From an archaeon (GTDB lineage Archaea; Methanobacteriota_B; Thermococci; Methanofastidiosales; NM3), in NCBI GenBank assembly GCA_004212155.1, contig RXIG01000008.1, positions 1-64,000 of the forward strand: a stretch of DNA of 64,000 nucleotides, read 5' to 3'. A program made the position numbers and the translations under genes. The notes beneath the pieces are model-generated. The model was not told the DNA's origin. It was given only the letters and a program-made list of their open reading frames with translations, and searched no databases. Below, piece after piece: positions 3,309-53,787 of this stretch (its first letter is position 1; each line of letters opens with the position of its first letter).

Positions 3309-4673
3309 TTACAGCAATTGAGAAAGCTCGCCCATGAGCGTGTTCGCCTTTGCGAGCTCGCCGGACGCATATATGGGATTTGCCAGCCCTGTCGCATTTC
3401 CCATGTGCTCCTGGATGCGCTCGATGAGTGAGGTCATCTCATCTGTCGGCTCTGAGGGAAGCTGCGCTGAAAGCTCGTTCCACGCGACAAGAGTGTTGTC
3501 CAACTGCGTACGTACAAGCGGCATGATCGAGACGGGGGACCACGGCGATGCAGGCATGGACTGTCGATACTCGTAGGCACCCATGTCGTACGCCGTGCCT
3601 TGTGGACGTGCAATGCCGAGGATGTCGTCTGTGACGCCGCCAAACGCCGGGCCGCTCGTGTTCGTCCCCGTGTCGATACAGGGTGAATCAGCGCTTAATG
3701 AGACGTCAGCGGGTGCATCGACAAAAAGCGGGTCGACATAGATATTGCCAATTCCGGGTATTATGCTCGAAATATTCGAGTAGGTAACAATCGGGGTGCT
3801 ACCTGTAGCGTTGTGAATACTATTCCAGATGATACAGTTCGTTATAATGGGCGATGATTTGGAGTTGTATATCCCGCTGCCAAATATATCGGTAAACAAA
3901 CTCCCCGTACCATCAATATCTCTAGCGGCTGATGCCATCAATGAGTTATAAGCTATGGTGCAGTTGACAATGATCGGGCTAGACTCCCTGAGGTACATCG
4001 CTGCACCTGAAGAAACGGCGTTGGCATCGCCTGCTCCTGAAGCCTCTGCGAGTGATTGAGCCATGTTTTCTGTGAAGATGCAATTGGTAATGGATACGAT
4101 TGACCATCCGATATACACCCCGCCACCCCGTGCTTCAGCGCTGGCAGATGCAGTATTATTAGTGGCTTTGGCATACGCCGTGTTTTTTGTGAAGATGCAA
4201 TTGGTAATGGTCACAAGAGAATACGAGATGTGCATGCCGCCGCCTTCGGATATGGAGGAAACGGTCGTAGCGATTGAACCAGTGGCCACCGAGGACATCA
4301 TCCCATTGGTGATGGTGAATCCATCGATGGTGATCTCGTAAGTACCGAAGGATGTGGTGTCGGTGTTTGTTATAGTAATAACGGGACCAGTGCTACCCCC
4401 ATCAAGGATGGTCGTTTCGGGCCCAGCTATGCTGACAAGGGAAAACGATTTTTGTAGACTCGCACCATTGATAAAAATATGGCAGTTATCATAAGTTCCC
4501 GGCTGGAAGTATATCGTCCCGCCATCCTCCACATTGGCGATGGCATATCCAATGTCACTCCCAGGGGACACGGTCATATCGGCCGTGACGGACGCAGGGA
4601 GAACGGTAAGAAGCGATGCAAAGAGTAGCAGCGTGACAAGGGCAGAGGAAATATCTTTTCTCATCATATTCAC
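3309..4673 (-). CDS. Secreted right-handed beta-helix / choice-of-anchor-Q-like protein with conserved C-terminal helical domain
   Basis: Signal peptide; repeated GGG.YI..S.V.ITNCIFT.N.A; DPLFVD..SPCIDTG..D..G..RPQG.AYDMGAYEY; C-terminus shared with two other genes. Confidence 0.85.
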   Translation of the reverse strand: MNMMRKDISSALVTLLLFASLLTVLPASVTADMTVSPGSDIGYAIANVEDGGTIYFQPGTYDNCHIFINGASLQKSFSLVSIAGPETTILDGGSTGPVITITNTDTTSFGTYEITIDGFTITNGMMSSVATGSIATTVSSISEGGGMHISYSLVTITNCIFTKNTAYAKATNNTASASAEARGGGVYIGWSIVSITNCIFTENMAQSLAEASGAGDANAVSSGAAMYLRESSPIIVNCTIAYNSLMASAARDIDGTGSLFTDIFGSGIYNSKSSPIITNCIIWNSIHNATGSTPIVTYSNISSIIPGIGNIYVDPLFVDAPADVSLSADSPCIDTGTNTSGPAFGGVTDDILGIARPQGTAYDMGAYEYRQSMPASPWSPVSIMPLVRTQLDNTLVAWNELSAQLPSEPTDEMTSLIERIQEHMGNATGLANPIYASGELAKANTLMGELSQLL

Positions 4674-5076
4674 CAGGGGAAATAAATATAATATTAATAA
4701 TTTTTAACGGCAAATATATAAAAACATATCGTTTTTTGTAATATAATTTCAAATAATTTTACATGAAAAAAGTTATGATTTAAATTTTTTTAATGAAATT
4801 AATTTTTATTACGTTAATAACCCATCCAGCATACATAGGAATTCCATAGGATAAAGGCTCGTTACGTTCATATAAATGACAAAAAAAATTATAAGACTTA
4901 ATGGATAGTGATAGAGAGAGTAGTCACAGCATGGAAGATATATATGTATAATCTACTGAAATTAAGAATATTATTCCTATGGATAATCCATCCATGGTTA
5001 TGTTTTTTATAGTAATAACGATAGTGTTACTTTGGGAGGAACACCTTCAGACGAAGGTGTGAGAGGAGGAATACAT

Positions 5077-6084
5077 ATCGATGCGGATACGCAACTGATC
5101 ACTGCACTGCACGGCGAAGCAACCGACTTCGTACCGGTGACGTCGGTGACACAGACGGCGACACTCGAACAGATGAAGGCATCGGGTGCTGCATGGCCAG
5201 CCGCCCACACCGACCCACACAAGCTCTATATGCTGGCTAACACCTTCAGGTCGCTGACAGGCATACCCGTCATACGCATACCGTTCGAAATCACCCTAGA
5301 AGCGGAGGCGCTTGGATGCGCCCTCAACATGGGAAAGATGGACAAGACCCCGTACGTGAACGAACCAGTCGGGCACTTACCCGATTCGGTCCCGAGAGAT
5401 GCCACGTCGCTGGGGCGGGTCTCCGTCATACTGGAAGCGCTCGACCTTATCGAGCAGAAAGTGCCACATGACGTTCCCGTCGTGGTGGGCGTGACAGGAC
5501 CGTTCACGCTCGCGGGCCATCTCGCGGGGATCGAGAACCTCGTCAAATGGACGCGTACAGACCCTGATACGGTTCAAGAGTATCTCACTTTGGCCACCAC
5601 CTTTCTGAACGATTATCTTGAATCGTTGGGCACGCGATCCGTTGATGTCGTGTCGATACTTGAACCGAGCGCCTCCACAGATATGATAAGCCCTAGCGCA
5701 TTCAAGCGTTTCGTGATGCCAATGCTCAAGGAATTGGCAGATGCGACAGAGACCACCAAGGTGCTCCATATCTGCGGAGACTGTACCCCGATCCTGGAGT
5801 ACATGGCACAAAGCGGATACAGCGGACTAAGCGTCGAATCGGCGGTAAGCGTGAAGAAGGCGCGTCGCATCGTCAAGGAGTCTGTGTCGCTTGTGGGCAA
5901 CATCGACCCCGTGTCGGTGCTGCTACAGGGCGACCATGACACCGTTGCGGAGGCGACGGAGAAGGCCATACTCGAGGGCATCGACGTCGTGGCACCGGGA
6001 TGCGGACTCGCTCCAGCGACACCCACCGAAAACATCGTTACCATGAGAAAGGAAACCGAGCGCATCGTAAACGAATACCAGTAA
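5077..6084 (+). CDS. mtaA: Methylcobalamin:coenzyme M methyltransferase (MtaA/CmuA family)
   Basis: URO-D-like fold motifs VPVTSVTQT, EAEALGC, GPFTLA, LHICG, APGCG; adjacent to mtaCB. Start uncertain (ATC 5077 after GGAGG, or GTG 5059 / TTG 5032). Confidence 0.88.
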   Translation: MDADTQLITALHGEATDFVPVTSVTQTATLEQMKASGAAWPAAHTDPHKLYMLANTFRSLTGIPVIRIPFEITLEAEALGCALNMGKMDKTPYVNEPVGHLPDSVPRDATSLGRVSVILEALDLIEQKVPHDVPVVVGVTGPFTLAGHLAGIENLVKWTRTDPDTVQEYLTLATTFLNDYLESLGTRSVDVVSILEPSASTDMISPSAFKRFVMPMLKELADATETTKVLHICGDCTPILEYMAQSGYSGLSVESAVSVKKARRIVKESVSLVGNIDPVSVLLQGDHDTVAEATEKAILEGIDVVAPGCGLAPATPTENIVTMRKETERIVNEYQ

Positions 6085-6117
6085 AACGCCTCCCGACCAC
6101 CAAAAAGGGGGAGAAAT

Positions 6118-6915
6118 ATGGCGCTCAAGAAGATTAAGGAAAGAAGCATGGCGTTGGACATTGACCCGGACGATATCCTCGTTAGGTACAATGTCCGACT
6201 CGAAAAGGAGATCACGCCAGAGGAGGCGGCAGAAGAGCTCTACCCGGACGACCCTCTCCTCAAGCCGATAGCACAGGCAGTGTTTGTGGGGGACGAGGAA
6301 GGCGTTGTCGCAGGGCTCGAAAAAGCTATTTCTGAGGGAAGAGAACCGCTCAAGCTCATCGATGAGGCGCTCATCGGCGGGATGAACGTCGTCTCCAAGC
6401 TCTACGACGAGGCTGTCATCTACCTGCCCGACGTGATGCTGTCCTCCGACGCGATGCAAAAGGGCATCGAATATTGCAAGTCGAAGGCAACTTCCGACAT
6501 GAAGCCCAAGGGCACGGTCATCTGCCACGTGGCAGAGGGCGACGTACACGACATCGGAAAGACCATCGTCGTGGCGTTGCTGCGGGCCAACGGCTACAAC
6601 GTCGTCGACCTCGGGCGAGACTGTCCCGTCGAGGAGGTCGTCGAGCATGTTGAGAAGGAACGGCCGCTGATGCTCACGGGCACGGCGCTCATGACAACGA
6701 CGATGTATGCCTTCAAGCACATCAACGACAAGCTCAAGGAGAAGAATCTTGCGCTCCCGTTCGTCTGCGGAGGCGGCGCGGTGAATCAGGACTTCGTCTC
6801 GAAGCTCGAGTTTGGCGTCTACGGTGAGGAGGCGCCCCAGGCGCCGAGAATGGCGGCAAGCATACTGTCTGGAGCCACTGTAGAAAAGCTCAGGGAGGAG
6901 TTCCATAAGCATTAG
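6118..6915 (+). CDS. mtaC: Methanol corrinoid protein
   Basis: ILVRYNV..EKE.TPEEAAEELYP N-terminus; B12 motif EGDVHDIGK; TGTALMTTTM. Confidence 0.95.
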   Translation: MALKKIKERSMALDIDPDDILVRYNVRLEKEITPEEAAEELYPDDPLLKPIAQAVFVGDEEGVVAGLEKAISEGREPLKLIDEALIGGMNVVSKLYDEAVIYLPDVMLSSDAMQKGIEYCKSKATSDMKPKGTVICHVAEGDVHDIGKTIVVALLRANGYNVVDLGRDCPVEEVVEHVEKERPLMLTGTALMTTTMYAFKHINDKLKEKNLALPFVCGGGAVNQDFVSKLEFGVYGEEAPQAPRMAASILSGATVEKLREEFHKH

Positions 6916-6927
6916 GGGGTGACATGA

Positions 6928-8313
6928 ATGGTAAAACGATTCACGACCATGGCATATGACGACCCGGACGAGATGACGTTTGGCGTCGCGAAGGAACCTG
7001 TCAAAGCAGGACTCGGCCTCACGATAGGCGATGGGTTCACGACCCCTGAGATCAACTACGCTCCGCGCCCAGAGACCGCATCGTCAAAGGAGAAGCTCGT
7101 TAAGGAGTACAAGAGCATCACCACCGATATCATGGACCGCATGGTGGCCGTCGGATTCCCAGGCGTGGTGCTCGAGACCGAGCACGTGCAGGAGATGACC
7201 AACAATCCCGAATGGGGTGCGGCCGTCGCCCACGCCCAAAAGGAGATCATGGAAAAGTACCATGACGAGTACGGCATCAACTGCGCCCTCAGGCACACGC
7301 CTGGGGACATACGAGAGGACCGCGACTACCTGCGCCTCAGGGAGGACAAGTACGACACGCTCCTCAAGTCGTTCGAGCTGCTGGCAGAAAACGGTGTCGA
7401 CATGCTCTCGATCGAGAGTATGGGCGGAAAGGAGGTCTTCGACCACGCCATACTCCGTGACGACGTGCCCGGCGTCCTGTTCTCCATCGGATGTCTCGGC
7501 GCCATGGACATGGAGTACATCTGGAAGGACATCGTCAACATCGCCAAGAAGCACAATGTCGTACCGGCAGGTGACACGGACTGCGCCCAGGCCAACACGG
7601 CGATGTTCGTCGCAGGCGGTCTCCTTGACAAGAACCTTGCACACACTCTGGCCATCATCGCTCGAGCCATAGCTGCGAGCAGGACGCTTGTCGCATGGGA
7701 ATGCGGCGCCACAGGCCCGAACAAGGACTGCGGTTATGAGGGAACCATCCTCAAGTCGATAGGCGGACGGCCGATAACCCAGGAGGGAAAGACGTCGACG
7801 TGCGCCCACTCGGACGTCATGGGCAACCTCGTCATGCAGTGCTGCGACCTCTGGTCCAACGAGTCGGTCGAGTACCACGGAGAGTTCGGCGGCACATCGG
7901 TGCAGGCGTGGGGCGAGACACTGGCATACGACTGCACCCTCATGAACGTGGCGCTCAAGACAGGCACCGAAAAGACGCTGCGCGACCTGTTCATGCTCTC
8001 GGACAAGTACCGGGACCCGCAGGGCTACGTGCTGGCATATCCCAACGCATGGAAGGTGGGCAGGGCGATAGTCGAGGACGGAGACGACCTCTACCTGCGC
8101 GCCAAGAACGCGGCGCTCGAGACGTGCAACATCCTGGAGGAGGGCGTCAACGAGGGCCTCAAGCTCACGCGTTTCGAGACCAAGGCGCTGCGCGATGCAA
8201 AGATTGCCCTCGAGGGCCTTCCCGACGACCAGGACACATTCATCTCCGAGAGCCTCGACAAGTACAAGAAAGAGGTCAGGGTGTTCGAGCCGAAGCGCAA
8301 CTACGATCTCTGA
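6928..8313 (+). CDS. mtaB: Methanol:corrinoid methyltransferase
   Basis: PEINYAPRPE, ESMGGKE, GDTDCAQANTAM, KDCGYE, CDLWSNES motifs of MtaB. Confidence 0.97.
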   Translation: MVKRFTTMAYDDPDEMTFGVAKEPVKAGLGLTIGDGFTTPEINYAPRPETASSKEKLVKEYKSITTDIMDRMVAVGFPGVVLETEHVQEMTNNPEWGAAVAHAQKEIMEKYHDEYGINCALRHTPGDIREDRDYLRLREDKYDTLLKSFELLAENGVDMLSIESMGGKEVFDHAILRDDVPGVLFSIGCLGAMDMEYIWKDIVNIAKKHNVVPAGDTDCAQANTAMFVAGGLLDKNLAHTLAIIARAIAASRTLVAWECGATGPNKDCGYEGTILKSIGGRPITQEGKTSTCAHSDVMGNLVMQCCDLWSNESVEYHGEFGGTSVQAWGETLAYDCTLMNVALKTGTEKTLRDLFMLSDKYRDPQGYVLAYPNAWKVGRAIVEDGDDLYLRAKNAALETCNILEEGVNEGLKLTRFETKALRDAKIALEGLPDDQDTFISESLDKYKKEVRVFEPKRNYDL

Positions 8314-8318
8314 TCGAC

Positions 8319-8343
8319 CTCTTCTTTTTTTCTTTTTTTATTT
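8319..8343 (+). terminator. Oligo-T terminator after mtaB
   Basis: CTCTTCTTTTTTTCTTTTTTTATTT immediately after the stop. Confidence 0.55.
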
Positions 8344-8399
8344 CGTGACCAATTATTTATGTAACCTTTCAAGAGATAACACCCCAAGGAGGTAATACC

Positions 8400-10019
8400 A
8401 TCAAGGAAGGCATCGCCATCGACCTCGGGACGAGCGGATTTCGGGCTCAGAGGATAGACCTCGGCTCGGGAGCGATCGCCCGTACAGCCATCACGCTTCG
8501 AAACCCCCTTCCGGGCGCGAACGTGATGGACCATCTTCACTTCGCCGTCACATGGGGTCAGGACACAGCGCACGACCTCGTCGTGCAGGCGCTCATGACG
8601 CTTTTCAATACGCTTGGCGCTACGCCCGGCTCGATCGACCGTATCGCCATCTGCGGCAATCCCATACAGCTCTCGCTCTTTCAAGGCATCCCCATCGACG
8701 ACCTTGCCTATGCGGGCGACAAGAAAAAGGAAAAGTACCACATCACAGATCAGGACCGCTCGGCATCCGTGCGCGACGCCGGCGAGATTGCCGGCATGGG
8801 GGCGTTTGAGGGGTGCGAGCTCCGAGTGCCCCCAGCCGTCAAGCACGAGGTTGGTGCCGATGCACTCGCATTGCTCGTGAAGTCGGGCATGCTCGATTCG
8901 TCCGAGATATCGATCGCCACCGACTATGGCACCAACGCGGAGATGGCGCTCAAGGTCGATGATATCATCTACACGGGGTCTGCAGCCGCAGGTCCAGCGC
9001 TCGAAGGCCAGGAGGTCGCATGTGGTACGCTGGCCAAGCCGCGCGTCGTGTCCGACATCGACTTCGAGGACGGCGCTTTCAGGTCGACGGTGCTAAGTGA
9101 TGACATGGACGAGTGCACAGGTGCGCTCTTCAATCCCATCGACGGTGAGATCTACGAGGAAGGCACGATAACCGCGACGGGCATCACCGGGACGGGGGTC
9201 ATCGCTCTCATTAAGGAGGGAATGGAGACCGAGCTCGTCAAACTGCCCCATATCAAGACACGCCACAAGGCGCTGTTGCTCCATGACGACCTCTACTTCG
9301 ACGAGCACGACCTCGTCGAAGCGGGACGCGCCATCGGCGCCATACGAGCCGGGCACGTCACGCTCTGCGATGCCGCCGGCATCGACGTGAAGGACATCGA
9401 GACGGCCTATATGTCGGGCGCGGCAGGCACGTACATGGATGCCGCCAAGGCACATATGGTGGGCCTCCTTCCGTATGCCGTAAGGGACGTCTATCAAATT
9501 GGCAACACATCCCTTGCCCTTGCGCGCGACGTGCTGCTCTCCGAGGACCGGCTCTGGGAGCTCGAGGACGTCGCACGTTCCGTTCGAGGGTCGCACGTGA
9601 TGTTTGCGACCTCGCCCGCGTTCAAGAAGGCATATATCAACGAGCTGTCCTACTGGGAGGAGGGCATGCCGTTTGAGCGCATGCAGACGATGCTCAAGCG
9701 CCGAGGACTGCCCATGGTCGCAGTCCCCACGACGGACCCGAAGGTGCACCGCATCGTCGTCAAGGACATACCAGACCTCGGAACGGAGGGACTCCGGGTG
9801 CTCGAGCGCACCGGCACGCTCCTCACGATGAAGATCGAGGGATGCACGCTGTGCGGCCAATGCGAGGAGGCCTGCACACACGAAGCCATCGAGCTGCGCG
9901 AGGACGGCACGGTAGTGATACGAAGCGACCTCTGCGACGGGTCGCACTGCCAGAAGTGCATACACGCATGCCCCGAGGAGCTGCTCTGCTGGGAGTGCCT
10001 GGAGGTGATGCCGCGATGA
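8400..10019 (+). CDS. ramA: Corrinoid protein reductive activase (RamA/RACE family, C-terminal ferredoxin domain)
   Basis: GIAIDLGTSGFRAQ, RNPLPGANVMDHL, TDYGTNAEMAL, AAAGPALEG, C-terminal CxxCxxCxxxC; start at ATC 8400 after GGAGGT. Confidence 0.92.
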   Translation: MKEGIAIDLGTSGFRAQRIDLGSGAIARTAITLRNPLPGANVMDHLHFAVTWGQDTAHDLVVQALMTLFNTLGATPGSIDRIAICGNPIQLSLFQGIPIDDLAYAGDKKKEKYHITDQDRSASVRDAGEIAGMGAFEGCELRVPPAVKHEVGADALALLVKSGMLDSSEISIATDYGTNAEMALKVDDIIYTGSAAAGPALEGQEVACGTLAKPRVVSDIDFEDGAFRSTVLSDDMDECTGALFNPIDGEIYEEGTITATGITGTGVIALIKEGMETELVKLPHIKTRHKALLLHDDLYFDEHDLVEAGRAIGAIRAGHVTLCDAAGIDVKDIETAYMSGAAGTYMDAAKAHMVGLLPYAVRDVYQIGNTSLALARDVLLSEDRLWELEDVARSVRGSHVMFATSPAFKKAYINELSYWEEGMPFERMQTMLKRRGLPMVAVPTTDPKVHRIVVKDIPDLGTEGLRVLERTGTLLTMKIEGCTLCGQCEEACTHEAIELREDGTVVIRSDLCDGSHCQKCIHACPEELLCWECLEVMPR

Positions 10020-11044
10020 AGGTTGTCATCATCGGCGGCTTCCTTGGCAGCGGGAAGACGACGACAATACTCACGCTCGGGCGGCTGCTTGGCGAGTCGG
10101 GCGAGAGGGTCGCCATCATCGTCAACGAGATAGGTGAGGTGGGCATCGACGGCGACGTCATCACACGCTACGGCTTTGAGACCAAGGAGCTCACCAACGG
10201 GTGCATATGCTGCAGCCTCAAGCGCGACATGAAGTACACGATACACCAGATGCGCGAGGCCTACGACCCGACATATATCCTCATCGAGCCGACGGGCATC
10301 GCGTTCCCGCTCCAGATCAAGGGCGAGATCGCGCGGATGAATATGGACGATGTCGAGTTTTCCCCCATCGTGACGCTCATCGACGGCACACGATTCAAGC
10401 AGCAGATGAAGGAGACGAAGAACTTCTCGCGAAGACAGATAACGGATGCGGAGGTGCTCTGCATCACCAAGGTGGACCTGATGAAGCCGCTCTATGTCCC
10501 CATCATCGAGACGTCGGTGAAGCAGATGAACCCCTCGGCACACTGCATGACGCTCTCCATGGTGACGGGCCAGGGTCTCGACGAGCTCATCGAACGCCTT
10601 GCCGACGAGAGCGTCGACCGGGCAGACGTGGTACTCGACCAGGATTCGATCGGCGCATCGGGCATAGCGACGCATGCACGCTCATATGTCGTCGATGCGC
10701 CAACGCTTGATGAGAAGACGGCAACTCGCTACGTCGCCGACGTGCTGCTGCATGTGCAAAGGAAGGTCGAGGAGCTCAATCCCGACTTCGTCGGGCACGT
10801 CAAGCTTACGCTGCTCCATCCGGACGTATCGCTTCGCGCAAGCATCACCGCTGCTGCGGACGAGCCGTCTATCGGCGCACTCGACGCCGGCCCAAGCGGC
10901 GAGCCGTCGCTGAAGGTGCTCGTTGCTGCAAGCAACGTGCCGTGGGAATCGCTTGCGGAGATCGCCGACGAGGCGGTGTCAAGGGCTGGAGAAAATCACT
11001 GCATCCGCACGACGCATGCCTTGCACCACGGCCATCGTCACTGA
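10016..11044 (+). CDS. CobW/COG0523 family P-loop GTPase (metallochaperone)
   Basis: GGFLGSGKTT, NEIGEVGID, GCICCS, IEPTG, His-rich C-terminus HALHHGHRH; ATGA overlap with ramA. Confidence 0.9.
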   Translation: MKVVIIGGFLGSGKTTTILTLGRLLGESGERVAIIVNEIGEVGIDGDVITRYGFETKELTNGCICCSLKRDMKYTIHQMREAYDPTYILIEPTGIAFPLQIKGEIARMNMDDVEFSPIVTLIDGTRFKQQMKETKNFSRRQITDAEVLCITKVDLMKPLYVPIIETSVKQMNPSAHCMTLSMVTGQGLDELIERLADESVDRADVVLDQDSIGASGIATHARSYVVDAPTLDEKTATRYVADVLLHVQRKVEELNPDFVGHVKLTLLHPDVSLRASITAAADEPSIGALDAGPSGEPSLKVLVAASNVPWESLAEIADEAVSRAGENHCIRTTHALHHGHRH

Positions 11045-11496
11045 CCAGTGTCTGATACTTGTTCGTTCGCCCCCTCATCCTCGAGTGCCTCAAGGTCCTT
11101 TTTCTTGGAATGCCTGTCGAGCACGAAGACCGCCACGAGGGCGATGAGAAGCAAGGGGATGCCATATTTTAAAAACTGGCTCGGTACGCCCTCTGCCCGC
11201 ACGTTGACCTTGTTCGAGAGGTCGGACTCGCCAGACTCATTGAACGCCGCGACCTGGTAGGTGCGTCTGTTGCCCCCCGATATGTCATCGACAAACGATG
11301 TGGTGCCAGGCGGCAGCTGCCTGTAGCGCATGCCGTCGCGATAGAGCCAGAATCCGTCCTCGTTGTCGTTGGGGTCGGTCCACGTGAGGTGCGCCTCTGA
11401 GTCTACAAGCGTCACATCGAGGTCGTCGGGCGCCTCGAGCGGCCCGGTGCTAAGCAGGAGCATGCAGCACATGAGGGCGATAACGGGGTGCATCAT
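11038..11496 (-). CDS. Small membrane-anchored fibronectin type III domain protein
   Basis: Signal peptide, LTWTD..NEDGF.LYRDG..SFVD..YQVAAFN..GES..SN, C-terminal TM helix. Confidence 0.8.
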   Translation of the reverse strand: MMHPVIALMCCMLLLSTGPLEAPDDLDVTLVDSEAHLTWTDPNDNEDGFWLYRDGMRYRQLPPGTTSFVDDISGGNRRTYQVAAFNESGESDLSNKVNVRAEGVPSQFLKYGIPLLLIALVAVFVLDRHSKKKDLEALEDEGANEQVSDTGQ

Positions 11497-11551: not shown

Positions 11552-12910
11552 CTAGATAAGCGATAGAATCTCTTCCATTAACTCAACAGCTTTCATCAAC
11601 TCACTGTTCGCATAGATCATATTCGCTGTGCTTGTTGCATTGCCCATATGTATCGTTATCTGGTCAAGTAGTGATGCAACATCGTCTGATACACCCTCTG
11701 GCAATTGGCCTTGCATTTCAGCAAAGAGTGTATTTGCGCGTGATAGCATCGTGTTTTTCAAAGGGATAAACGAGACCAGGGGGCTTACTTGCGGACGAAT
11801 GGAAATCGTGTCAGTGAATGTATCTGTGGCTCCCGAATCATCAGTGACCCTGAGGGTAACGTCATGAAGGCCAGCTTCCACGTAGTAAAACGTCGTCAAG
11901 GCTCCCGTGTCATCGTACGTACCATCGTCATCCCAATCCCATTCAAAAAGGACTATGGTGCCATCGGAATCACTGGAGGGGGAAGCGTTGAATGTAATCG
12001 TTTGCCCGGCAAGTGGTGATGCCGGCGAGAATGAATACATGGCCTGAGGTCTGGCATTTACAACAACATCCGTACTGTATGTATCGCTGGCACCTTCATC
12101 ATCAGTGATGCGCAACGTGACGGTGTGGGTGCCTGCAGTGGTGAACGTATGGAGTGCTGATGTAGACGTACTAGTATGATCGTAGGTGCCATCATCGTTC
12201 CAATCCCATTCGTAGAGGTCTATCGTTCCGTCGGGGTCGGATGACGAGGACGCATCGAAAGAAACTTCTTGTCCAGTAGCAGGCAGAGTTGGGGCATAAT
12301 CAAAATCAGCGTTGGGGTCTTGATTAATTACAGTTTTGCCAACAACAACGTTGTCAATGATAAAGTACCACACCCATGTACCTTCATTTGTGGAATACCA
12401 GAATTCAATATACACATTGGAAGGGTCTGAATATCCGCTCGGGTCAAACGCCGCTGTGTAATGTTCGCCTCCTGCTGGGTCATCAACAGTCGAATACCAT
12501 AGTTCTTCCTCAAAATATGAGGTTCCTGTGCCGCCAGAATATATAGATATGCTCGCCTCGTCTCCTTCCAAATTAGCCTGGAAGTTCTTGTCTACCGAGA
12601 GTGTAACAGAGGTGAGGCCAGACATATCAATAGAAGGCGTAAACAATCCTACATCATATTTAACGCCAAAGTTGCCGTCGCTATCGGCGATAGCCACATA
12701 ACCGTCACTGTTTGGAGGTAAATTCGAGGATCTATATACGCCTTCCCAATCTCCTGTGCCACTATATATCACTTGGGACCAATTAGAAGGAATTCCACTT
12801 TCAAAGTCTTCCTCTAGCAATGTAGGAGCAGCCGAGCTTTCAAAAGGCATGTATGTAACGGCCAACGAAATAAATAGTATGGAAATTAATATAATGACTT
12901 TATTACGCAC
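11552..12910 (-). CDS. Secreted protein: cleaved-adhesin/jelly-roll-like domain, two PKD domains, conserved C-terminal helical domain
   Basis: EDFESGIPSNW..LFTPSIDMS..IDNV; two FDASSSSD.DG.I..YEWDW.DDG..VTLR.TDD.GA repeats; lower GC than its neighbours. Confidence 0.85.
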   Translation of the reverse strand: MRNKVIILISILFISLAVTYMPFESSAAPTLLEEDFESGIPSNWSQVIYSGTGDWEGVYRSSNLPPNSDGYVAIADSDGNFGVKYDVGLFTPSIDMSGLTSVTLSVDKNFQANLEGDEASISIYSGGTGTSYFEEELWYSTVDDPAGGEHYTAAFDPSGYSDPSNVYIEFWYSTNEGTWVWYFIIDNVVVGKTVINQDPNADFDYAPTLPATGQEVSFDASSSSDPDGTIDLYEWDWNDDGTYDHTSTSTSALHTFTTAGTHTVTLRITDDEGASDTYSTDVVVNARPQAMYSFSPASPLAGQTITFNASPSSDSDGTIVLFEWDWDDDGTYDDTGALTTFYYVEAGLHDVTLRVTDDSGATDTFTDTISIRPQVSPLVSFIPLKNTMLSRANTLFAEMQGQLPEGVSDDVASLLDQITIHMGNATSTANMIYANSELMKAVELMEEILSLI

Positions 12911-13115
12911 GAGTACCACCAAAATGAATACATTATATTTCTAACAATTGTTTTTATAAAATTATTGTATTTAAATATATATTTCATGATTTGAAATGAT
13001 AATTTTAATTATGAATAAACAATGAATGGTGTGAAAAGGCTGATCCTCTTGTAATTTTTTCCAAAAATTATAGATTTCATATATCATATGCATTATCATT
13101 GCACGTTCCGAAGCA

Positions 13116-40400: not shown

Positions 40401-43400
40401 AGCACTTCTATTCCCTCGATGCCATCGTTTGTGGACGAGTCACGGACGTAGCCCATGATAAGCCCTTCCTCCTTCTCGATGAGGAAGTCGACACCGGATG
40501 TGGTGCCTCCGTGCACGATATCCACATCATACACAGCTGCAAGAGAGTAGTCCTGCTTCGTGCATGTCACGGTGTATCCAATGTATGGCAGATTGGAGTA
40601 GAGGCCGTTGATGTAGTAGGCCCCGTTGATGTCGGTCGTGACCTGTCGGCCAGCGATGCTCACGGTGGCATTGCGCACGGGCACATCGATCGTGTCATCG
40701 TAGACACCGTTGTGATTGACGTCCTCGTAGACGTGGCCCTTGAGCGCGCCATCCTTCTCGAGCGTGTAGTCGATGTTGTCGGTCTCGTGGCCAGCCGTCA
40801 CGGGGACGTTGTACTGTATCTGCGAGACGTAAAACGGCTTGCTCGCCTGGATGGCGTAGTTTGCTGGGACGACATCAAGCAGGATCCAGAATCCCTCGAT
40901 GTCGGACCATGTGGCATTGTCGCTGTTTTGTATCCAGACCTCGGTCTCGGCGTTGATGTCGTTGAGCGAGAGCTCGACATCGCCCGATACCGAGCCTGTC
41001 ACCGGCAGCGGATCGGCCTTGTCCATCGGGTATCCGATATCGGTTGTGACATCGTCGAAGTATACCTCTTCATATACTAGTATATTATTACAGAGGAGGT
41101 ATGGCTCCGGGTCGGGCGTATGATTCTTGTAGAGGTCCGGGTCCGGCGCGGGTGGTGACGTGGATTCATACTTCTCGACATCGTAACCGTTGAGCTCTGC
41201 TATGCCCGTGTACCTGTTGATCTCTCGACCAAGGTCGAGCGTGAAGTCCTTCGTTATTGGTACATCGAGTATGGTGTAGTAGCCGGTCGTGTCGGACGTA
41301 GCGGCAAACATGCGCGATAACGACACGTTGGCGTCGGGCAGGGGGATATCCGTTGGCGGATCGTACGTTAGATTATCATCCTTGTCCTCCCAGACGTACC
41401 CCTCGACGCGTCCTGTCTCACGTGTCGGTGATACGTTCTTGGTCACGGTCGACGATATGGTCACGTAGTTGAACTCGTATTCGTACCATGGGTTTCCATA
41501 ATCGTCACCATCATACTTTTGCATGATGAGTAGATGACGCCCTTTGGGTATGGAGTTATCCTCTAGACCCATTTGATCGGCAAAGGCATAGTTCCCGTAA
41601 AAATCACTGTACGTATACCTTAGGGCATCGAGAGGACGCCATGAATTTTCATATCCGGGTGTCCAAAGTATGGACTCATCAACTGGGTCGCCGTCCTCGG
41701 TCACCCTGCCAACAAGTTCGCCCGTCAGGCGCTGCATTTCAACGTTATTGTCAGGATTCTCCTCATCAGCGATTACGCCCATCATTGCGGGTGCGACCCA
41801 CCAGTCGTAATCATCCTTGTAGGCCACCATGTTGTGGTCGCCTGCATCGGCCTTTACGAAGTAGAAGCCGAAATCATCTGAGGTCACTGACGGATATCCA
41901 GGTATCTCGACGGTAACGCCAGAGAGTCCCTCTCCTTCTTCGAACGCGTCTGTACCGTTGGTGTCCTCGTATGCGACGCCTGAAACGTAGCCGTAATTGG
42001 ATACCGTCTCATCAGGGAGTGCGTAGCTGCCCTGGAAGTTGCATACTGACTGAGCGCCGCTCGAGACGGTAATGCCCGTCCTGACGACCACATCGTGTGT
42101 CGTTTCCTCGTAGTCGCCCGCACCGCCATCATCCGCCACGACGGTGTATGAGCCTACAGGCACCTGCACGAACTCGTAGATGCCGCTGTCATCGGTGATG
42201 GCCTCACGGCCGTATGCACGGACGCGTGCGCCCTCGATCGCGGTGTTGCTTCCGCGGTCGTAGACAACGCCCTTGATGATACCCGTCCTTCGAACGATCG
42301 TTATGTCATATGAGTTGTCAAACGATTCGTTTGCTGGCAGCGGCGTGACCGTGAGCGTGTTGGTGTAGTAGTCCGGTTCGTTCGTCTTGACGATCACATC
42401 GTCAACGTAGTAGCATATCGACGAGGATTCGTAGTCGTACACTGAGTAACGCTCGATGTTGATACCCTCAAGCACATACCAGCCATTGACGTCGGTCAGG
42501 GAGGAAATGGTGGTATTTGGTATCGACACTGAAACGTTTTCTACAGGCAGACCATCCTTGTCAAGGATCTGTCCAACGATGAAGCCTGGGTTCTCCTCGA
42601 GCTGGAAGTTGGTCTCCGCGTTGAGATTGGGTATCACCTCGACGCGCTCCTTGGCCGTCTTGTGGTCGAGAAGGCCCTCATATTCGCTTTCCTCAAGCTC
42701 GCAGTCGATCGGTGGGCACGGGTCGGTCACGACGACATCATACTCGCCGTTTGGCACTTCCTCGAAGAAGTAGTACCCTGCCCTGTCGGTCGCCGTTGCA
42801 AGACCGAGGCCCGGCACCTCGACCGTTGCGGCCTCGATCGGGTTGCCGTTCACGTCGGTGACGATGCCCGATATGTAGCCGTTGGTCGGTGTGAGCGGTT
42901 CTGGTGAGAGGTTGAAGTCGGCTGGAACGGGTGTAACGGGTGGACCGGGCTGCACGAACGGACTTAGGGGTCCGCCGTTGAGCCCGAACGCTCCGGAGTC
43001 GTCGTAGTAGAGCACATCGGTCTTGTACCCGTCCTTCTCACAGATCATCGTGTAGCTGCCAGGTGTGACGCCTGTTATCTTATAATACCCATCTGAATCG
43101 GTGATCGCTGAGAGGCCAAGGCCCTTGATCGACACCTCTGCGCCCTCGATGGGCGCGGAGCCGTTCGAGACATGGCCTTCGATCGAACCGAAGTTCTTGC
43201 TTATGGCGAAGTTGATGCCTTCTGTTGTCTGTCCCCGGTAGACACGTACGGCAGTCTTGACCTGCGAGACATACTGGTCCTTGGAGGTCCTGATGTCATA
43301 CGTGTCGGTGGGAAGGCCCTTGAACACGAAGTTTCCGAACTGGTCGGTGCGCACGACGGCATCATCGCCGAGCACATCGGTCGCGAGCGCATGGGTCACG

Positions 43401-43873
43401 TGGTCGAGCGCCTCGACCTTGACGCCTGCGACAGGCGAGCCGGACGTATCGACGACCCGTCCGTAGATCGAGTCCTTGAGATGCATCTCGACCGTCCCTC
43501 CAGCAAGGGCGAGCGTACCGCCGGAGTTGTCGACGTTGTACGACACGGTCTGGAACCCGTCGGCCTTGAACGTGAGGTAGTGAAGCCCATCCCAGTCCAG
43601 GCCGGCAGGAGACCCGGAGAAGACGTCCGTAAACGATCCGTCCCCCGCCGTGGTCGCACCGGCCGATCCGGCATTATCAAGATAGACGCCGATGCCCTCG
43701 AGACCCTCTCCGGAATCGAACTCATCGTTGCCATTGAAGTCGAACCAAACCGCGTCCGCATCCCCTGTGATAGCGTTTGCGGCCTTGGCCGGTTCGGCAT
43801 TAATATATACTAAACTTAGAAGTATTATGGCTCCTATGAAAAGAGACACGCCCTTTTTCATCTTTTCTTTCAT
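37478..43873 (-). CDS. Giant (2131 aa) secreted protein with many carboxypeptidase-regulatory-like / SdrD-B-like repeats
   Basis: Signal peptide; repeated I.G.V.D..G.PI.GA.V...TD..G.Y....VP.G.Y; EDxNxNGxxD Ca-binding-like loops. Confidence 0.88.
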   Translation of the reverse strand: MKEKMKKGVSLFIGAIILLSLVYINAEPAKAANAITGDADAVWFDFNGNDEFDSGEGLEGIGVYLDNAGSAGATTAGDGSFTDVFSGSPAGLDWDGLHYLTFKADGFQTVSYNVDNSGGTLALAGGTVEMHLKDSIYGRVVDTSGSPVAGVKVEALDHVTHALATDVLGDDAVVRTDQFGNFVFKGLPTDTYDIRTSKDQYVSQVKTAVRVYRGQTTEGINFAISKNFGSIEGHVSNGSAPIEGAEVSIKGLGLSAITDSDGYYKITGVTPGSYTMICEKDGYKTDVLYYDDSGAFGLNGGPLSPFVQPGPPVTPVPADFNLSPEPLTPTNGYISGIVTDVNGNPIEAATVEVPGLGLATATDRAGYYFFEEVPNGEYDVVVTDPCPPIDCELEESEYEGLLDHKTAKERVEVIPNLNAETNFQLEENPGFIVGQILDKDGLPVENVSVSIPNTTISSLTDVNGWYVLEGINIERYSVYDYESSSICYYVDDVIVKTNEPDYYTNTLTVTPLPANESFDNSYDITIVRRTGIIKGVVYDRGSNTAIEGARVRAYGREAITDDSGIYEFVQVPVGSYTVVADDGGAGDYEETTHDVVVRTGITVSSGAQSVCNFQGSYALPDETVSNYGYVSGVAYEDTNGTDAFEEGEGLSGVTVEIPGYPSVTSDDFGFYFVKADAGDHNMVAYKDDYDWWVAPAMMGVIADEENPDNNVEMQRLTGELVGRVTEDGDPVDESILWTPGYENSWRPLDALRYTYSDFYGNYAFADQMGLEDNSIPKGRHLLIMQKYDGDDYGNPWYEYEFNYVTISSTVTKNVSPTRETGRVEGYVWEDKDDNLTYDPPTDIPLPDANVSLSRMFAATSDTTGYYTILDVPITKDFTLDLGREINRYTGIAELNGYDVEKYESTSPPAPDPDLYKNHTPDPEPYLLCNNILVYEEVYFDDVTTDIGYPMDKADPLPVTGSVSGDVELSLNDINAETEVWIQNSDNATWSDIEGFWILLDVVPANYAIQASKPFYVSQIQYNVPVTAGHETDNIDYTLEKDGALKGHVYEDVNHNGVYDDTIDVPVRNATVSIAGRQVTTDINGAYYINGLYSNLPYIGYTVTCTKQDYSLAAVYDVDIVHGGTTSGVDFLIEKEEGLIMGYVRDSSTNDGIEGIEVLAMDDDIPSNEETGVTDSNGWYVLVANRGTYTLQAPMEPNTTDYVTKERYDVVVPGRAIVTEHFALWDETTMPDNNLYGIVWRNNNSDPAYQPGEEVENVEVSIPGLGRTVYSSSSTNNDINGDDYNFVFMDVPNDGGRTYHVTAKEEITGTTPQQYTMTVARDQATNTQVMIELPSTPSTPYDSWIEGIAFWDMNNNGVVDENERIPDMPVYIPGSGVNNDVASAGLKAETDSTGYYIINEVSSQINSSTTKMTIVAGDLADEGIYEPGIQRNLPMVEGSGQWIDFPLYKTTSYTSAYLYGEVYFDADGENDYDVDASVPKTEGIVNASVTADSVSEDTDSFGFYILEGLTADETYLVEVNAAGYESHEEYTTVELGLNTMNYSLNKLTNTISGYVFEDVNGNGVKDAGDKVINAKIIAVKNGVGTFEAFTDDTGFYSVPSLPVGTYTLQCVQIVDGTELPEYQDWQIEDPIVISEGDIIEQDIPMSRYFVNVTGSVDDGSNPVQGADVEWFSPDDFSTPRFTTQTDSSGNWDTSGWEHADLNYDGDNDDNETGVPLGTWFVKFSKTGYDVTTKWVTLDYDDWDSYYITATINESSSTLGIINGTVTQMDGTTPIQGVTVKATNTSTTDEYYASTLGDGTYSVNDLPDATYDLEFSKLGFVTEVVNGVVVNPGDTITQDISLDMSVAGFGDLEVTVTDDSASSYVGALVTIWHFNESTQVYEYFGEAATNGSGIATFTNLPTDGDGETYVACASDNDADMIMDASEFVVEVGDSDTVSLVLEPGTSSDLTFPEAGWYMMSFPVLVPEDVPWPALLYASGIDYSTWDKIAQYNGTDEYYEYYDYPDTSSVKSSTVKYPEHDRGYWIRLNGLAELTVVGEESTTSRSIDITGGQWSLIGYNLLTANNDIATALDASVPGTVNLMWTYLPDEVAGSPTNQAQLYDPRGRFASGFDEFNPWHGYWIYCDDDCTITIS

Positions 43874-49277: not shown

Positions 49278-50214
49278 GGCGGATGAGGGCGTACGAGACC
49301 GCGCCCGACAAGAACGGCGTCGCTATCCAACTGCCCACGATGCGCATGATAAAGCGCCTGTTGACCGATGTCGTGCCTTTCGTCAATCCCACCCCTACCA
49401 CGCTTCCTACCGTCGCCTGGCTCAGCGAGACGGGGATGCCTATGAGCGTGCAGGCAAAGACGGTAAACGATGACGAGAACTGGCACACGAACGCCTGCAG
49501 GGGGTCGAGCTGCGTTATCCCCTTCCCGATGGTAAGTATGACGCGCTTTGAGAAGAGGAGCGCACCGATCGCGATGAACAGCGCACCGAGCACGATGGCG
49601 CTCTCGGCGTTCATGACATCCTGGGCCACGAGCGTTCCCACGGCGTTGCCGATGTTGTTTGAGCCGAGCGAGAACGAAACGAGGATGCCAGACCCCGCAA
49701 CGAGTAGCGCAATGAAGCGCTCGTAAGTATACGCCCTTTGTTTGAAGAGGCGTGAGAACACGCCCCTGTAGAAGAAAAACGACAGAAACGACATGGCGGC
49801 TGAGAAGAAAGGAAGCAGCGTCCAGACGACGGCGATGTCAAAGAGCACCGACGAGTTGAGGGCAAGGCCTGTTGCAAGCCCCGTTCCCGCCAGGGCGCCC
49901 ACCACCGACTGCGTTGCCGAGACGGGAAAGCTCAGATACGTTGCTATCGCAACGGCGCTTGCGGCGCACGTGAGTGCGACAGAGAGCGTCAGGAGCTCAA
50001 GCGAGGACGTGTCAAGGAGCCCCCTTCCCACCGTGTCGATCGTGTTGCTTCCCGCAAGGAGCGCACCGGCGACGACGGAGACGCCAGCTAGCGCCGTCGC
50101 CTTGCGGTACGAGAGGATGTTGGCCCCCACCGTCGTACCGATGGCGTTGGCTATGTCGTTTGCCCCGATCGTTGCTGCGATGAACATGCTTGCAGCTATC
50201 AACGCCAGTTCCAT
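49267..50214 (-). CDS. Inorganic phosphate transporter (PiT family)
   Basis: GANDIANA and GSNNIGNA signature repeats; PVS.Q..VG. Confidence 0.92.
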   Translation of the reverse strand: MELALIAASMFIAATIGANDIANAIGTTVGANILSYRKATALAGVSVVAGALLAGSNTIDTVGRGLLDTSSLELLTLSVALTCAASAVAIATYLSFPVSATQSVVGALAGTGLATGLALNSSVLFDIAVVWTLLPFFSAAMSFLSFFFYRGVFSRLFKQRAYTYERFIALLVAGSGILVSFSLGSNNIGNAVGTLVAQDVMNAESAIVLGALFIAIGALLFSKRVILTIGKGITQLDPLQAFVCQFSSSFTVFACTLIGIPVSLSQATVGSVVGVGLTKGTTSVNRRFIMRIVGSWIATPFLSGAVSYALIRLIA

Positions 50215-50392
50215 GGAGATCCCGTCCTTACCTACAATGGCGGACAGATACATAAATATTGTGAGCGCTTTGCCATACTTCGCCGCGCATATGAGAGAGG
50301 TCGGGGCGAGAACGCATGTGTCGACACCCCACGGGAAAAACAAATACAAATATATATAAACATGCCGCGCAAGACATTTCTTGGTGATTATA

Positions 50393-51082
50393 ATGGAACA
50401 AGGGAAAGATTTTGATTACGAAGTATTGAAGAGTCCGGCATACACCTTGCTGCAGGTCAACCTCAAGAGCGGCCAGTCCATCAAGGCGGAGGCGGGTGCC
50501 ATGGTCTCGATGTCTGCCAACTGCACCGTGCAAACGGGTATGCAGGGAGGCATGTTCGGTGCGTTCAAGCGCAAGGCGCTTGGAGGCGAGTCGTTCTTCC
50601 AGAACACGTTCACGGCTGAGAACGGCCCGGGCGAGATCACGCTGGCACCAGGGTATCCAGGCGACATACAGTGCATCCCGATGGAAGGCGAAAGGTGGAT
50701 GATGCAGTCGGGAGCGTTCCTTGCATCGACCCCCGACATGACACTTGACACCAAGTTCCAGGGGCTGCGGGGCATGGTATCGCGCGAGGGGCTCTTCTTC
50801 CTCAAGGCGGAAGGCAGGGGCGACCTCTTCGTCTCGGCGTTTGGCGCGCTCATCAAGCGCGAGCTTGCCGGCGAGATGATCATCGACACCGGGCACCTCG
50901 TGGGATTCTCCGAATCCATCGACTACGAGGTCAAAAAGATCGGGGGGCTCAAGTCGACGTTCCTCTCGGGTGAAGGGCTCGTGCTCAAGCTCAAAGGGCA
51001 CGGCAACGTCTACCTGCAGACGAGGAACCCGACGGCGTTTGGCAGCTGGCTCGTTCCGTTCCTTCCCAACAAGAATCAGTAA
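50393..51082 (+). CDS. AIM24 / TIGR00266 family protein
   Basis: AEAGAMVSM, GGESFF.N.F, EGLF, IDTGHLV, SGEGLV. Confidence 0.92.
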   Translation: MEQGKDFDYEVLKSPAYTLLQVNLKSGQSIKAEAGAMVSMSANCTVQTGMQGGMFGAFKRKALGGESFFQNTFTAENGPGEITLAPGYPGDIQCIPMEGERWMMQSGAFLASTPDMTLDTKFQGLRGMVSREGLFFLKAEGRGDLFVSAFGALIKRELAGEMIIDTGHLVGFSESIDYEVKKIGGLKSTFLSGEGLVLKLKGHGNVYLQTRNPTAFGSWLVPFLPNKNQ

Positions 51083-51118
51083 GTCACCAGATGGTGACTC
51101 TCTTTTTTCTTCTGTTTT
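51082..51118 (+). terminator. Hairpin plus T-tract terminator
   Basis: AGTCACC-AGAT-GGTGACT followed by CTCTTTTTTCTTCTGTTTT. Confidence 0.6.
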
Positions 51119-51564
51119 CAGTTCTCTAATTCATAGATTTTTTTTCTTTCTTAAAACGTAAAATGAAAGAGTAAGATCATTGAAGATTCATTCATATCAA
51201 TTTACATACGTGGACCTAATCAGGGAGGGACTGTCAGTATAGTCACCACAATATTTGACGATGACACAAAACGAAGTGCGTATCGCTTTAAGCCCGTGCA
51301 CATCGGCATCCACCTTTACCTTCCATCGTCTGACAGAATGAAAAAAGCAATATGGCTCGAAGGCAAAAACAACTTTGGTTTCTGCATCAACTAGCGGTCG
51401 TTTGTGAATCGAGCTAAAAATACCGGGACATGAAGGCGTATCATCATTGCAGAGACATTACATTGAGTTTTTATATGAGTCAGGGATAAGTTTTTTAATC
51501 TAATTTTAGTAAATTATATAGTTATTCATAAAAATAAAATAAGTATTATTTGGGGTGATAAATA

Positions 51565-53787
51565 ATGAAACGAATTAATATTATTTTCTCTTATGCTTTT
51601 ATTTTCATTCTGCTATCTGCTTTGTTCGCTTTCTCGCCTGTTTCAGCAGCCGCAACGATAACACTCTCGCCCAGCGGGGGAGATGATACTGCGGCGATCC
51701 ATGCTGCCATAGACGACATCGATGAAGGGGGTACAATATATTTTGAAGGCGGCACCTTCTACGCCAACATCGTGATCAATGATCCTGGGAAGTCATTCTC
51801 GCTCGTGGGCGCCGGTGCGGGCTCTACCATACTTGATGGTGAAGACAACGGTTCCATCCTTCGTATCGAATACACGGGCGATTGCGCTGTTACGGTTGAG
51901 GGATTCACCATTACCAATGGAAGCGGCACGATAGATAATGATTATAGCTTTAATATGAATGGTGGTGGAATATACATCTATCAATCAAAAGCCGTCGTAT
52001 CCAACTGCATTTTCATTGAAAATTATACAAATTCATACGGTGGTGGACTATACTCCCACGAATCAGACGTAGCCCTGAACAACTGCACGTTCGAGGATAA
52101 TACAGCGGGGAGTTATGGCGGTGGCATTGATATCGACTATTCATCCACTATTGTTAACAACTGTACGTTCTTGAACAATGATAGTGGCGATTATGCGGGA
52201 GGAATGGATATTTACTACTCGAAAGCCACGGTCACTAACAGCACGTTCGAGAATAATTACGCTGACTACGGTGGCGGAGTATATGTTTATGGCATGTATG
52301 AAAACACCACAGAGGGCGCAATTGACACGTCTTTAGCATCATCGTCTGGTAAACGTAGAGATACAGGTTCTGTATACCCCCTGGGCGAAGTGTTGGGTAC
52401 AAACAGCGATGCCGGCAGTGTCTTTACCGATTGTACTTTCAAAGAAAACGATGCTGAATATGGCGGCGGCATGTACAACGATTACGAAGCCATCATTTCA
52501 ATTGCCACCTGCACGTTTGAGGAGAACAGTGCCTATTACAACGGGGGGGGAATTGAAAACTATGATACGTATAGCGTGAACATAGACAACTGCCTGTTCA
52601 CCGGGAACTATACGGAGTCTGGCAACGGCGGCGGCATGCACAACTGTGGCGCCAGCCTCGTCGTGAGCACCTGTATATTCGAGTATAATGTTGCCGAATA
52701 CCAAGGCGGAGGCATGATGAACGGTGACTATTCAGAGCCGATCGTTACTGATTGCATCTTTCGATTCAACGAAGCGTACTACCAAGGTGGTGGGGGCATG
52801 ATGAACGCCGGTGGGGCGGCCCCTCACGTCATCTCTTGCACGTTCACGAACAACTGGGCGGAAAACCGCGGCGGTGGGATGTATAATGCAGGTTCCACAG
52901 GTGCTACGCCCATCGTTACCGATTGCATATTCTCTTACAACGAGGCAGGCTGGCGCGGAGCTGGTATGGATAATCATGGCTACAGCGAACCGTACGTCAC
53001 CAACTGCGTATTTGTTGGAAATGTCGTGATTGGTGAGCCACATTCAAATGCCATTGCTTCGATGGGCGATGAAGTCCCCATGGAAAGTGCCGGGGGCGGC
53101 GGTATGTTCAATGGGTATTCATGCGTGCCGACAGTAATCAATTGCACGTTCACGCAAAACTCCATACCGTACTACAGTTCTGGGGGGACCTATGATGGCG
53201 AGAACGGCGGAGGTGTGAAGTTCAACACATCGTACACATCGACGTTTACCAACTGCGTTATCTGGGGGAACTTCTGCGGTGACAATCCGAACGAAGTCCT
53301 TGATACCAACGGGGACTATGCGCTCATCACGTACTCCAACGTCGGCGGCGGCTGGCCCGGCGAGGGCAACATCGACGCAGACCCGCTCTTTGTCAACGCA
53401 CCAACTGACGTCGCGCTCCGCTCTGGCTCGCCCTGCATCGACGCCGGCACCGACATGAGCCCCGACGTGGTCGACGATATCCTCGGCGTTGCCAGGCCGC
53501 AGTACCGCGCATATGACATGGGTGCCTATGAATATGTGGCAAAGAGCACCTGGTCGCCCGTCTCGATCATGCCACTTGCGCGAACGCAGCTGGCATATGT
53601 CCTTGAGGAATGGAACGCGCTGTCCGAGCAGCTGCCCGAGGAGCCAAGCGACGAGATGACCGAGCTCATCGAGCGCATCCAGGAACATATGGGAAACGCG
53701 ACAGGACTGGCAAATCCAATCTACGCATCTGGCGAGCTTGCAAAGGCGCTCTCGCTCATGGGCGAGCTATCGGCGCTCATGGCATAA
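51565..53787 (+). CDS. Secreted right-handed beta-helix (Pmp-like GGG/FxxN repeats) protein with conserved C-terminal helical domain; paralog of 3309..4673
   Basis: Signal peptide; many C.F..N.A..GGGM.N repeats; DPLFVNAP..SPCIDAG..YDMGAYEY; shared C-terminus. Confidence 0.88.
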   Translation: MKRINIIFSYAFIFILLSALFAFSPVSAAATITLSPSGGDDTAAIHAAIDDIDEGGTIYFEGGTFYANIVINDPGKSFSLVGAGAGSTILDGEDNGSILRIEYTGDCAVTVEGFTITNGSGTIDNDYSFNMNGGGIYIYQSKAVVSNCIFIENYTNSYGGGLYSHESDVALNNCTFEDNTAGSYGGGIDIDYSSTIVNNCTFLNNDSGDYAGGMDIYYSKATVTNSTFENNYADYGGGVYVYGMYENTTEGAIDTSLASSSGKRRDTGSVYPLGEVLGTNSDAGSVFTDCTFKENDAEYGGGMYNDYEAIISIATCTFEENSAYYNGGGIENYDTYSVNIDNCLFTGNYTESGNGGGMHNCGASLVVSTCIFEYNVAEYQGGGMMNGDYSEPIVTDCIFRFNEAYYQGGGGMMNAGGAAPHVISCTFTNNWAENRGGGMYNAGSTGATPIVTDCIFSYNEAGWRGAGMDNHGYSEPYVTNCVFVGNVVIGEPHSNAIASMGDEVPMESAGGGGMFNGYSCVPTVINCTFTQNSIPYYSSGGTYDGENGGGVKFNTSYTSTFTNCVIWGNFCGDNPNEVLDTNGDYALITYSNVGGGWPGEGNIDADPLFVNAPTDVALRSGSPCIDAGTDMSPDVVDDILGVARPQYRAYDMGAYEYVAKSTWSPVSIMPLARTQLAYVLEEWNALSEQLPEEPSDEMTELIERIQEHMGNATGLANPIYASGELAKALSLMGELSALMA

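Follow-up and report, generated by a model that had tools for sequence, protein, structure and literature searches.

Three secreted proteins with a common tail

The window analysed here, the 64,000 nt at positions 1 to 64,000 of contig RXIG01000008.1 (assembly GCA_004212155.1) from an archaeon of the Methanofastidiosales (lineage NM3), encodes three proteins of 454, 456 and 740 aa that each begin with a signal peptide and end in the same helical domain, referred to below as the C-terminal helical domain (CTD) (Table 1). Gap-free comparison of the tails gave 62 identities in 77 positions between the 454-aa and 740-aa proteins, with a run of 28 identical residues, exactly the figures given by the original prediction for a shared tail of 77–78 aa, and 33 identities in 77 between the 456-aa protein and either of these. 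The alignment of the three copies (A1) has 33 invariant columns, and a profile built from them scored the same copies with E-values of 1e-44 to 1e-47, far beyond chance.

The passengers in front of the domain differ. A 2025 copy of Pfam recognized PMP-type beta-helix repeats in the 740-aa protein and two PKD domains in the 456-aa protein, whose passenger had been described as unrelated to the other two with the same two PKD domains; no Pfam family was found on the N-terminal part of the 456-aa protein. NCBIfam (release 20) placed a choice-of-anchor Q domain (choice_anch_Q, NF041518) in both beta-helix proteins, with scores of 43.9 and 42.7 bits where 25 is the cut-off, and none in the PKD protein; a score of 46.8 bits was also obtained for the domain before CTD copy 1. 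The last c. 80 residues of all three proteins matched no model in either database. Apart from the signal-peptide-like segment at the N-terminus, none of the three proteins has a strongly hydrophobic stretch. There is no C-terminal hydrophobic helix and no Cys near the end of the signal peptide that would indicate a lipobox, and the NCBIfam scan gave no sorting-signal match, so that the predicted lack of these three anchors in the window proteins was borne out by hydrophobicity, Cys and family checks alike.

Table 1. Positions of the CTD genes, CTD copies and choice-of-anchor Q domains in the window
Feature	Position	Strand	E-value
Open reading frame (ORF), 454 aa: signal peptide, right-handed beta-helix passenger, choice-of-anchor Q, CTD	3309..4673	-	
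CTD copy 1, residues 373–454, to the last residue	3312..3557	-	1e-47
Choice-of-anchor Q (NF041518), directly N-terminal to CTD copy 1	3567..3707	-	
ORF, 456 aa: signal peptide, N-terminal domain without assigned family, two PKD, CTD	11552..12922	-	
CTD copy 2, residues 374–456	11555..11803	-	9e-45
ORF, 740 aa: signal peptide, beta-helix with PMP-type repeats, choice-of-anchor Q, CTD	51565..53787	+	
Choice-of-anchor Q, directly N-terminal to CTD copy 3	53407..53535	+	
CTD copy 3, residues 659–740; with AlphaFold2 helix model	53539..53784	+	

A family of helical domains in one archaeal order

The domain is not confined to these three genes. In the genome containing the window (1.49 Mb in 28 contigs, rated 89.8% complete), 13 ORFs matched the three-copy profile at E ≤ 0.002, each match ending 0–9 residues from the C-terminus, and a broader profile added a weak 14th copy (E 0.0016, residues 972–1031 of 1049). 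An N-terminal hydrophobic segment resembling a signal peptide is present in 10 of the 13, and the proteins end in sequences such as ...LSQLL, ...LSLI and ...SALMA. Their passengers, as read from sequence (the Pfam scan among own-genome carriers covered the three window proteins), comprise beta-helices, PKD arrays, an HExxH metalloprotease and unassigned domains, and one protein of 121 aa consists of a signal peptide and a CTD alone. About 120 secreted and membrane proteins are predicted for this genome, and other secreted proteins are anchored by lipobox-like signals or C-terminal transmembrane helices. Archaeosortase ArtA (TIGR04125) had no match in this 89.8% complete genome, while the controls, run on other genomes, gave the matches expected of them.

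When 1.84 billion protein representatives were searched exhaustively with the profile, 179 matched at E ≤ 0.001, 132 of them at E ≤ 1e-10; the family figures given here come from the best 150 of the 179. Four of these (P0011, P0026, P0068 and P0144) were dropped as chance matches, being long repeat proteins that share only a short motif resembling helix 3. Among the remaining 146 members, the CTD lies no more than 13 residues from the C-terminus in 143, and one member is a fragment. Among the 125 members starting with Met, a hydrophobic segment is present at the N-terminus of 77; the remaining 48 start within beta-helix repeats or within the CTD and look like truncated gene calls. Many C-terminal matches on signal-peptide proteins with varied passengers are what the original prediction had led us to expect, and both the 13 own-genome copies and the wider family conform to it.

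Pfam analysis of 109 members identified Beta_helix (34), NosD (17) and PMP (11) among others, the further passengers including PKD, DUF11, InhA-type MAM, peptidases C1, S8, C11 and C14, Big_1/invasin, CARDB and the I42 inhibitor; all of these types are extracytoplasmic. The same module is found on a papain-type protease and on chagasin-type inhibitors, which is to be expected if the CTD brings proteins together in one place. A solute-binding-protein (SBP_bac_5) passenger was set aside as an argument for tethering, as its sole match is partial and lies in a 919-aa protein. A search for orthologues of the InhA-like passenger with a different anchor gave only CTD-bearing or truncated ones, and a search for longer homologous proteins gave 21 matches, all named hypothetical or after the passenger.

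AlphaFold2, run on an alignment of 13 sequences (A2), predicted a compact three-helix bundle (mean predicted local distance difference test score 87.4, predicted template modelling score 0.74) with helices at 10–29, 37–55 and 59–80 of the 81-residue construct. Nothing among the known structures and families matched it significantly. None of 297 Foldseek matches in the PDB reached E ≤ 0.001, the nearest being generic or designed three-helix bundles; a profile search of PDB sequences gave nothing below E 0.006, with low-scoring, repeat-type matches at the top; the ESM Atlas gave a top score of 0.83, below the useful range; and Pfam on the 13 CTDs at E ≤ 10 gave sub-threshold noise only (e.g., PilO and DUF5667). 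The domain thus matches no already characterized domain significantly in Pfam, NCBIfam, PDB sequences or Foldseek; a match to one with an unrelated function would have spoken against the surface-tag proposal.

The best-conserved positions in the 146 members are P6, P11, L17, L31-P32, A53, N58 (99%), A62, L66, A69 and L80, and a partly polar stripe is formed by Q47, H49, N52, Y61, E65 and K68. An N-A-T sequon, noted in the original prediction as kept by all three window copies, is indeed present in these, but is not conserved throughout the family, occurring at its position in 9 of the 13 own-genome copies and in 37 of the 146 members. The domain is acidic, with a mean net charge of −6.9, and direct lipid binding is unlikely because of this strong acidity. 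Two subtypes can be distinguished, one stopping with helix 3 and the other adding a short Cys-containing tail. Two Cys, one towards the end of helix 1 and the other in the tail, are both present in 63 members, both absent in 81 and present singly in 2, counts that overstate independence since the sequences are related. This co-occurrence suggests a disulfide staple between the two residues, which would fit an extracytoplasmic location.

Six-frame searches of 133 genomes of the GTDB phylum located the CTD only in the window's own order. Within it, matches were found in all six genomes of the window's own family (f1; 8–18 per genome), in all six of family f2 (1–11 per genome), in 11 of 17 of family f3 (1–3 per genome, weaker) and, weakly, in one of four of family f4; the two genomes of family f6 gave none. 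The recurring single match in family f3 lies in frames of c. 345–395 aa, one of which, when read, proved to encode a secreted 373-aa protein with what looks by eye like a C-type-lectin-like domain and a divergent CTD at its end. Ten clusters were looked up, and the four with named records all carry the label Candidatus Methanofastidiosa, their proteins being named only after the passenger. A search for related loci with alignment A1 returned only a sister metagenome-assembled genome (MAG) filed as 'Methanomicrobia archaeon'. The large sister family (f5) gave no match in any of 97 genomes at E ≤ 0.001, and no protein longer than 1081 aa is among the best 150 of the 179 hits. Both results go against the link to the helical C-terminal extension of Thermococcales pyrolysin that the original prediction had suggested, a comparison in which the pyrolysin sequence itself was not included.

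Several loci deserve mention as observations in their own right. The same PKD-protein sequence occurs in this genome at C8:54715-55659 (3′ open) and C7:1-504 (5′ open); one of the 13 CTD ORFs is cut by a contig end, with its N-terminal half and signal peptide apparently at the end of another contig, and the end of C8 and the start of C7 probably join into one CTD gene. Two further CTD genes stand head to head on contig C10 (C10:33514-34341, minus strand; C10:34563-35306, plus strand), both lacking the signal peptide and the beginning of the beta-helix; the inverted similarity between them is short and at the level of paralogues, and the arrangement reflects either a rearrangement or a MAG assembly join. 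In relatives, several CTD matches contain one in-frame TAG (e.g., G002:C32:14024-14239 and G005:C149:2379-2603), which could mark pseudogenes or another reading of TAG.

The position behind choice-of-anchor Q

'Choice-of-anchor' is the name given to domains in surface proteins whose end is formed by one of several alternative anchors, and their usual partners are PGF-CTERM/archaeosortase A and the C-terminal domains of the type IX secretion system (T9SS) (10.1101/2023.03.06.531300). There were 60 choice_anch_Q matches in the order, and we inspected 25 of the loci. The CTD follows in 12 of them, and a different module of 127 aa in six, all from family f2 (L037:1120-1500, minus strand, L040, L041, L044, L051 and L060); a single locus, from family f4, has a divergent helical tail rich in Cys, and in the remaining six another sequence follows or none. 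Alignment relates the 127-aa module to the last part of the S-layer protein of this genome (32% over 76 aa, E 5e-6); its score for PF05124 (S_layer_C) falls a little short of the cut-off, and it looks alpha/beta. A module of similar type forms the end of an 869-aa ORF in this genome that is not an S-layer protein (C5:19345-21954). The CTD therefore shares an architectural slot with an S-layer-derived end domain, which fits a role in attachment to the envelope.

The tail in family f4 (L038:1160-1444, minus strand, genome G009) is a Cys-rich helical stretch of 95 aa after choice_anch_Q that the profile missed. It looks like a divergent relative of the CTD, and the family may be wider than the counts given above. 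At locus L053, choice_anch_Q is followed by a 90-aa non-helical tail, which by eye resembles the Trp/Tyr/Cys-rich tail of a 2131-aa ORF with a signal peptide in the window (37478-43873, minus strand); the two tails are possibly a third portable end module.

Outside the window lies the gene for the S-layer protein (889 aa, PF05124; C8:979-3648), which has a paralogue at C22:407-2290. The next gene on that strand, 79 nt further downstream (C8:3727-5064; locus inspected, C8:2227-5061), encodes a 445-aa protein with a signal peptide, a thioredoxin-like CSHC (CxxC) domain, about five TPR-like hairpins, a transmembrane helix and an acidic tail. This gene order is kept in all five family-f1 genomes with enough flanking sequence. 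For the Cys-rich S-layer, the 445-aa protein may act as a stalk in the membrane or as a thiol oxidoreductase outside the cytoplasm. When it was considered as a candidate receptor, hhalign of the CTD profile against its helical repeats gave a probability of 1.6% and no homology. Elsewhere in the window, a 152-aa ORF (11038-11496, minus strand) follows the PKD-CTD gene in the same orientation at a distance of 55 nt and encodes a signal peptide, a C-terminal transmembrane helix and a weak fibronectin-III-like match below the cut-off, and four ORFs of 350, 265, 461 and 498 aa (5032-10019, plus strand) resemble, by eye, a corrinoid methyltransferase set that includes an iron-sulfur activator.

A candidate docking tag and its alternatives

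Docking at the cell surface is the best reading of these observations because the copies are many and C-terminal, the carriers have signal peptides, the passengers are varied and extracytoplasmic, and the slot is shared with an S-layer module. We therefore propose, with about as much confidence as doubt, that the CTD is a tag holding varied secreted proteins at the envelope, non-covalently, on the S-layer or a membrane-anchored partner. Methanofastidiosa would append this independently folding, acidic three-helix bundle to many Sec-exported proteins; once exported, the domain would dock non-covalently onto an abundant surface component, either the S-layer protein or a membrane-anchored partner, and so substitute for a transmembrane, lipid or archaeosortase anchor. 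The analysis establishes the family, its terminal position, the fold prediction, the range of passengers and of lineages, and the slot shared with an S-layer-derived end domain; of these, the original prediction, as a proposal of a surface tag, anticipated the many copies, their terminal position and the varied passengers. Attachment to the envelope and a binding partner are what we infer.

Several points weigh against docking. No binding partner emerged from the analysis, and docking itself is predicted; an acidic CTD would need a basic or cation-bridged site to dock on, and none was seen. The CTD genes lie dispersed among housekeeping genes, and the neighbourhoods of 14 loci have no gene in common. 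The linker between passenger and CTD is only c. 5–8 residues, which is short for a surface tether. The data are also compatible with release of the CTD proteins into the medium. Nor are the counts independent of one another, drawn as they are from related genomes and clustered metagenome proteins. Moreover, the terminal position is not obligatory, since stand-alone proteins of signal peptide and CTD (c. 105–125 aa) exist and the domain is internal in two of the 146 members, where it precedes a chagasin-type I42 inhibitor domain. An internal position had been named in advance as evidence against a surface tag; these two members show it, against the 143 with a terminal CTD, and because of them the CTD is to be regarded as a folded module and not necessarily as a terminal signal.

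The stand-alone proteins also bear on an alternative in which the CTDs bundle with one another, homo- or heterotypically, into multimers or a shared extracellular complex and do not bind the envelope. Helical bundles often oligomerize, and the small proteins could co-assemble with the larger ones; an odd number of Cys in 27 of the 146 members (one in helix 1 and two in the tail) possibly leaves a free Cys for an intermolecular bond, and the commonest passenger is the beta-helix, beta-helix proteins often being multimeric. However, PKD arrays, proteases, inhibitors and lectin-like domains are not all expected to need the same oligomeric state, and AlphaFold2 predicted the single chain as a closed bundle with high confidence. 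We consider such an assembly domain unlikely. The conserved, partly polar stripe, to which N58 can be added, could instead point to a module that binds an external target such as a partner cell, a mineral or a polymer, as Gram-positive three-helix modules do, and Foldseek gave a weak likeness to three-helix fragments of the CbpA-N and factor-H-binding kind (probability 0.15–0.30, E > 2). These matches are, however, as insignificant and generic as the rest, adhesin-type domains are already present among the passengers, and the slot in common with an S-layer-derived domain points inward, to the cell's own envelope, which makes an external ligand rather improbable.

The short linker to the beta-helix would also suit a folding aid, a stabilizing cap or a pro-domain that is removed or inert after export, and terminal extensions of secreted enzymes can undergo processing. 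This explanation seems to us very improbable, as the same domain occurs on unrelated folds, alone and ahead of an inhibitor domain, and the alignment has no conserved cleavage motif between passenger and CTD. Returning to docking at the envelope, a more specific form of it, which is possible but which we hold only tentatively, is a dockerin-like system in which one helical tag, in Cys-stapled and Cys-free versions, would direct about a tenth of the secretome onto a single S-layer-associated receptor, the cargo being adhesin-like beta-helices, lectin-like proteins, and proteases with their inhibitors. If this is true, SLH or cohesin-dockerin display would have a counterpart in archaea, with an unrelated fold.

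The comparison with known systems gives likeness in function and difference in sequence. The S-layer homology domain (SLH, PF00395) of Gram-positive S-layer and surface proteins is, like the CTD, a helix-rich terminal module on many unrelated secreted proteins, and non-covalent attachment to the envelope is presumed for both. However, PF00395 matched neither the 13 CTDs at E ≤ 10 nor the full window proteins at E ≤ 1; SLH forms a tandem triplet of c. 55-aa repeats, whereas each protein has a single three-helix CTD unit; and SLH is Gram-positive, whereas the CTD is archaeal and, within its phylum, found in one order only. In contrast to SLH, we know of no cell-wall polymer in the CTD lineage. 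The dockerin (PF00404) of cellulosomes is likewise a C-terminal tag of c. 70–80 residues on enzymes. Some cellulosomal serpins carry dockerins, and the CTD is dockerin-like in that proteases and protease inhibitors bear the same tag. Yet PF00404 did not match the CTDs, and the alignment has no duplicated calcium-binding loops or internal duplication. Dockerins pair with cohesins; no cohesin-like repeated receptor was found for the CTD, and no conserved neighbour at the 14 loci.

The S-layer end domain of the Methanococcales/Thermococcales type (PF05124, S_layer_C region) takes the same position after choice_anch_Q in sister genomes, but its sequence is unlike that of the CTD, which is predicted to be all-helical and has no counterpart inside S-layer proteins. 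PGF-CTERM/archaeosortase A and the T9SS C-terminal domain resemble the CTD in being C-terminal on varied surface proteins. Unlike PGF-CTERM proteins, however, the CTD proteins have no PGF motif and no C-terminal transmembrane helix, and ArtA was not found in the genome. The T9SS C-terminal domain is a beta-sandwich, whereas the CTD is predicted to be all-helical and had no NCBIfam or Pfam match. By these comparisons, the CTD does not qualify as an SLH, dockerin, PGF-CTERM or T9SS C-terminal domain; judged by its signal peptides, terminal position, many copies and varied passengers, it has the profile of a generic C-terminal surface-docking module.

C-terminal surface modules confined to particular lineages are already known as a kind, and the CTD family itself is uncatalogued and unnamed. 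There is no model for it in Pfam (2025) or NCBIfam (release 20), and full-text literature searches, which did not reach supplementary tables, found no description of it. Nor was a description of the cell surface found in the literature searched for Methanofastidiosa, which are uncultured methyl-reducing methanogens. At present the names of its carriers reflect the passenger alone, and for this reason the CTD deserves an entry in the domain databases. With a labelled recombinant CTD as probe, it could be possible to bind cells in enrichments and perhaps to sort them. The few mechanisms of surface display listed for archaea gain a new fold family with the CTD, if the docking role proposed here is correct, and the domain offers a sequence handle for predicting which Methanofastidiosa proteins sit together at or near the surface.

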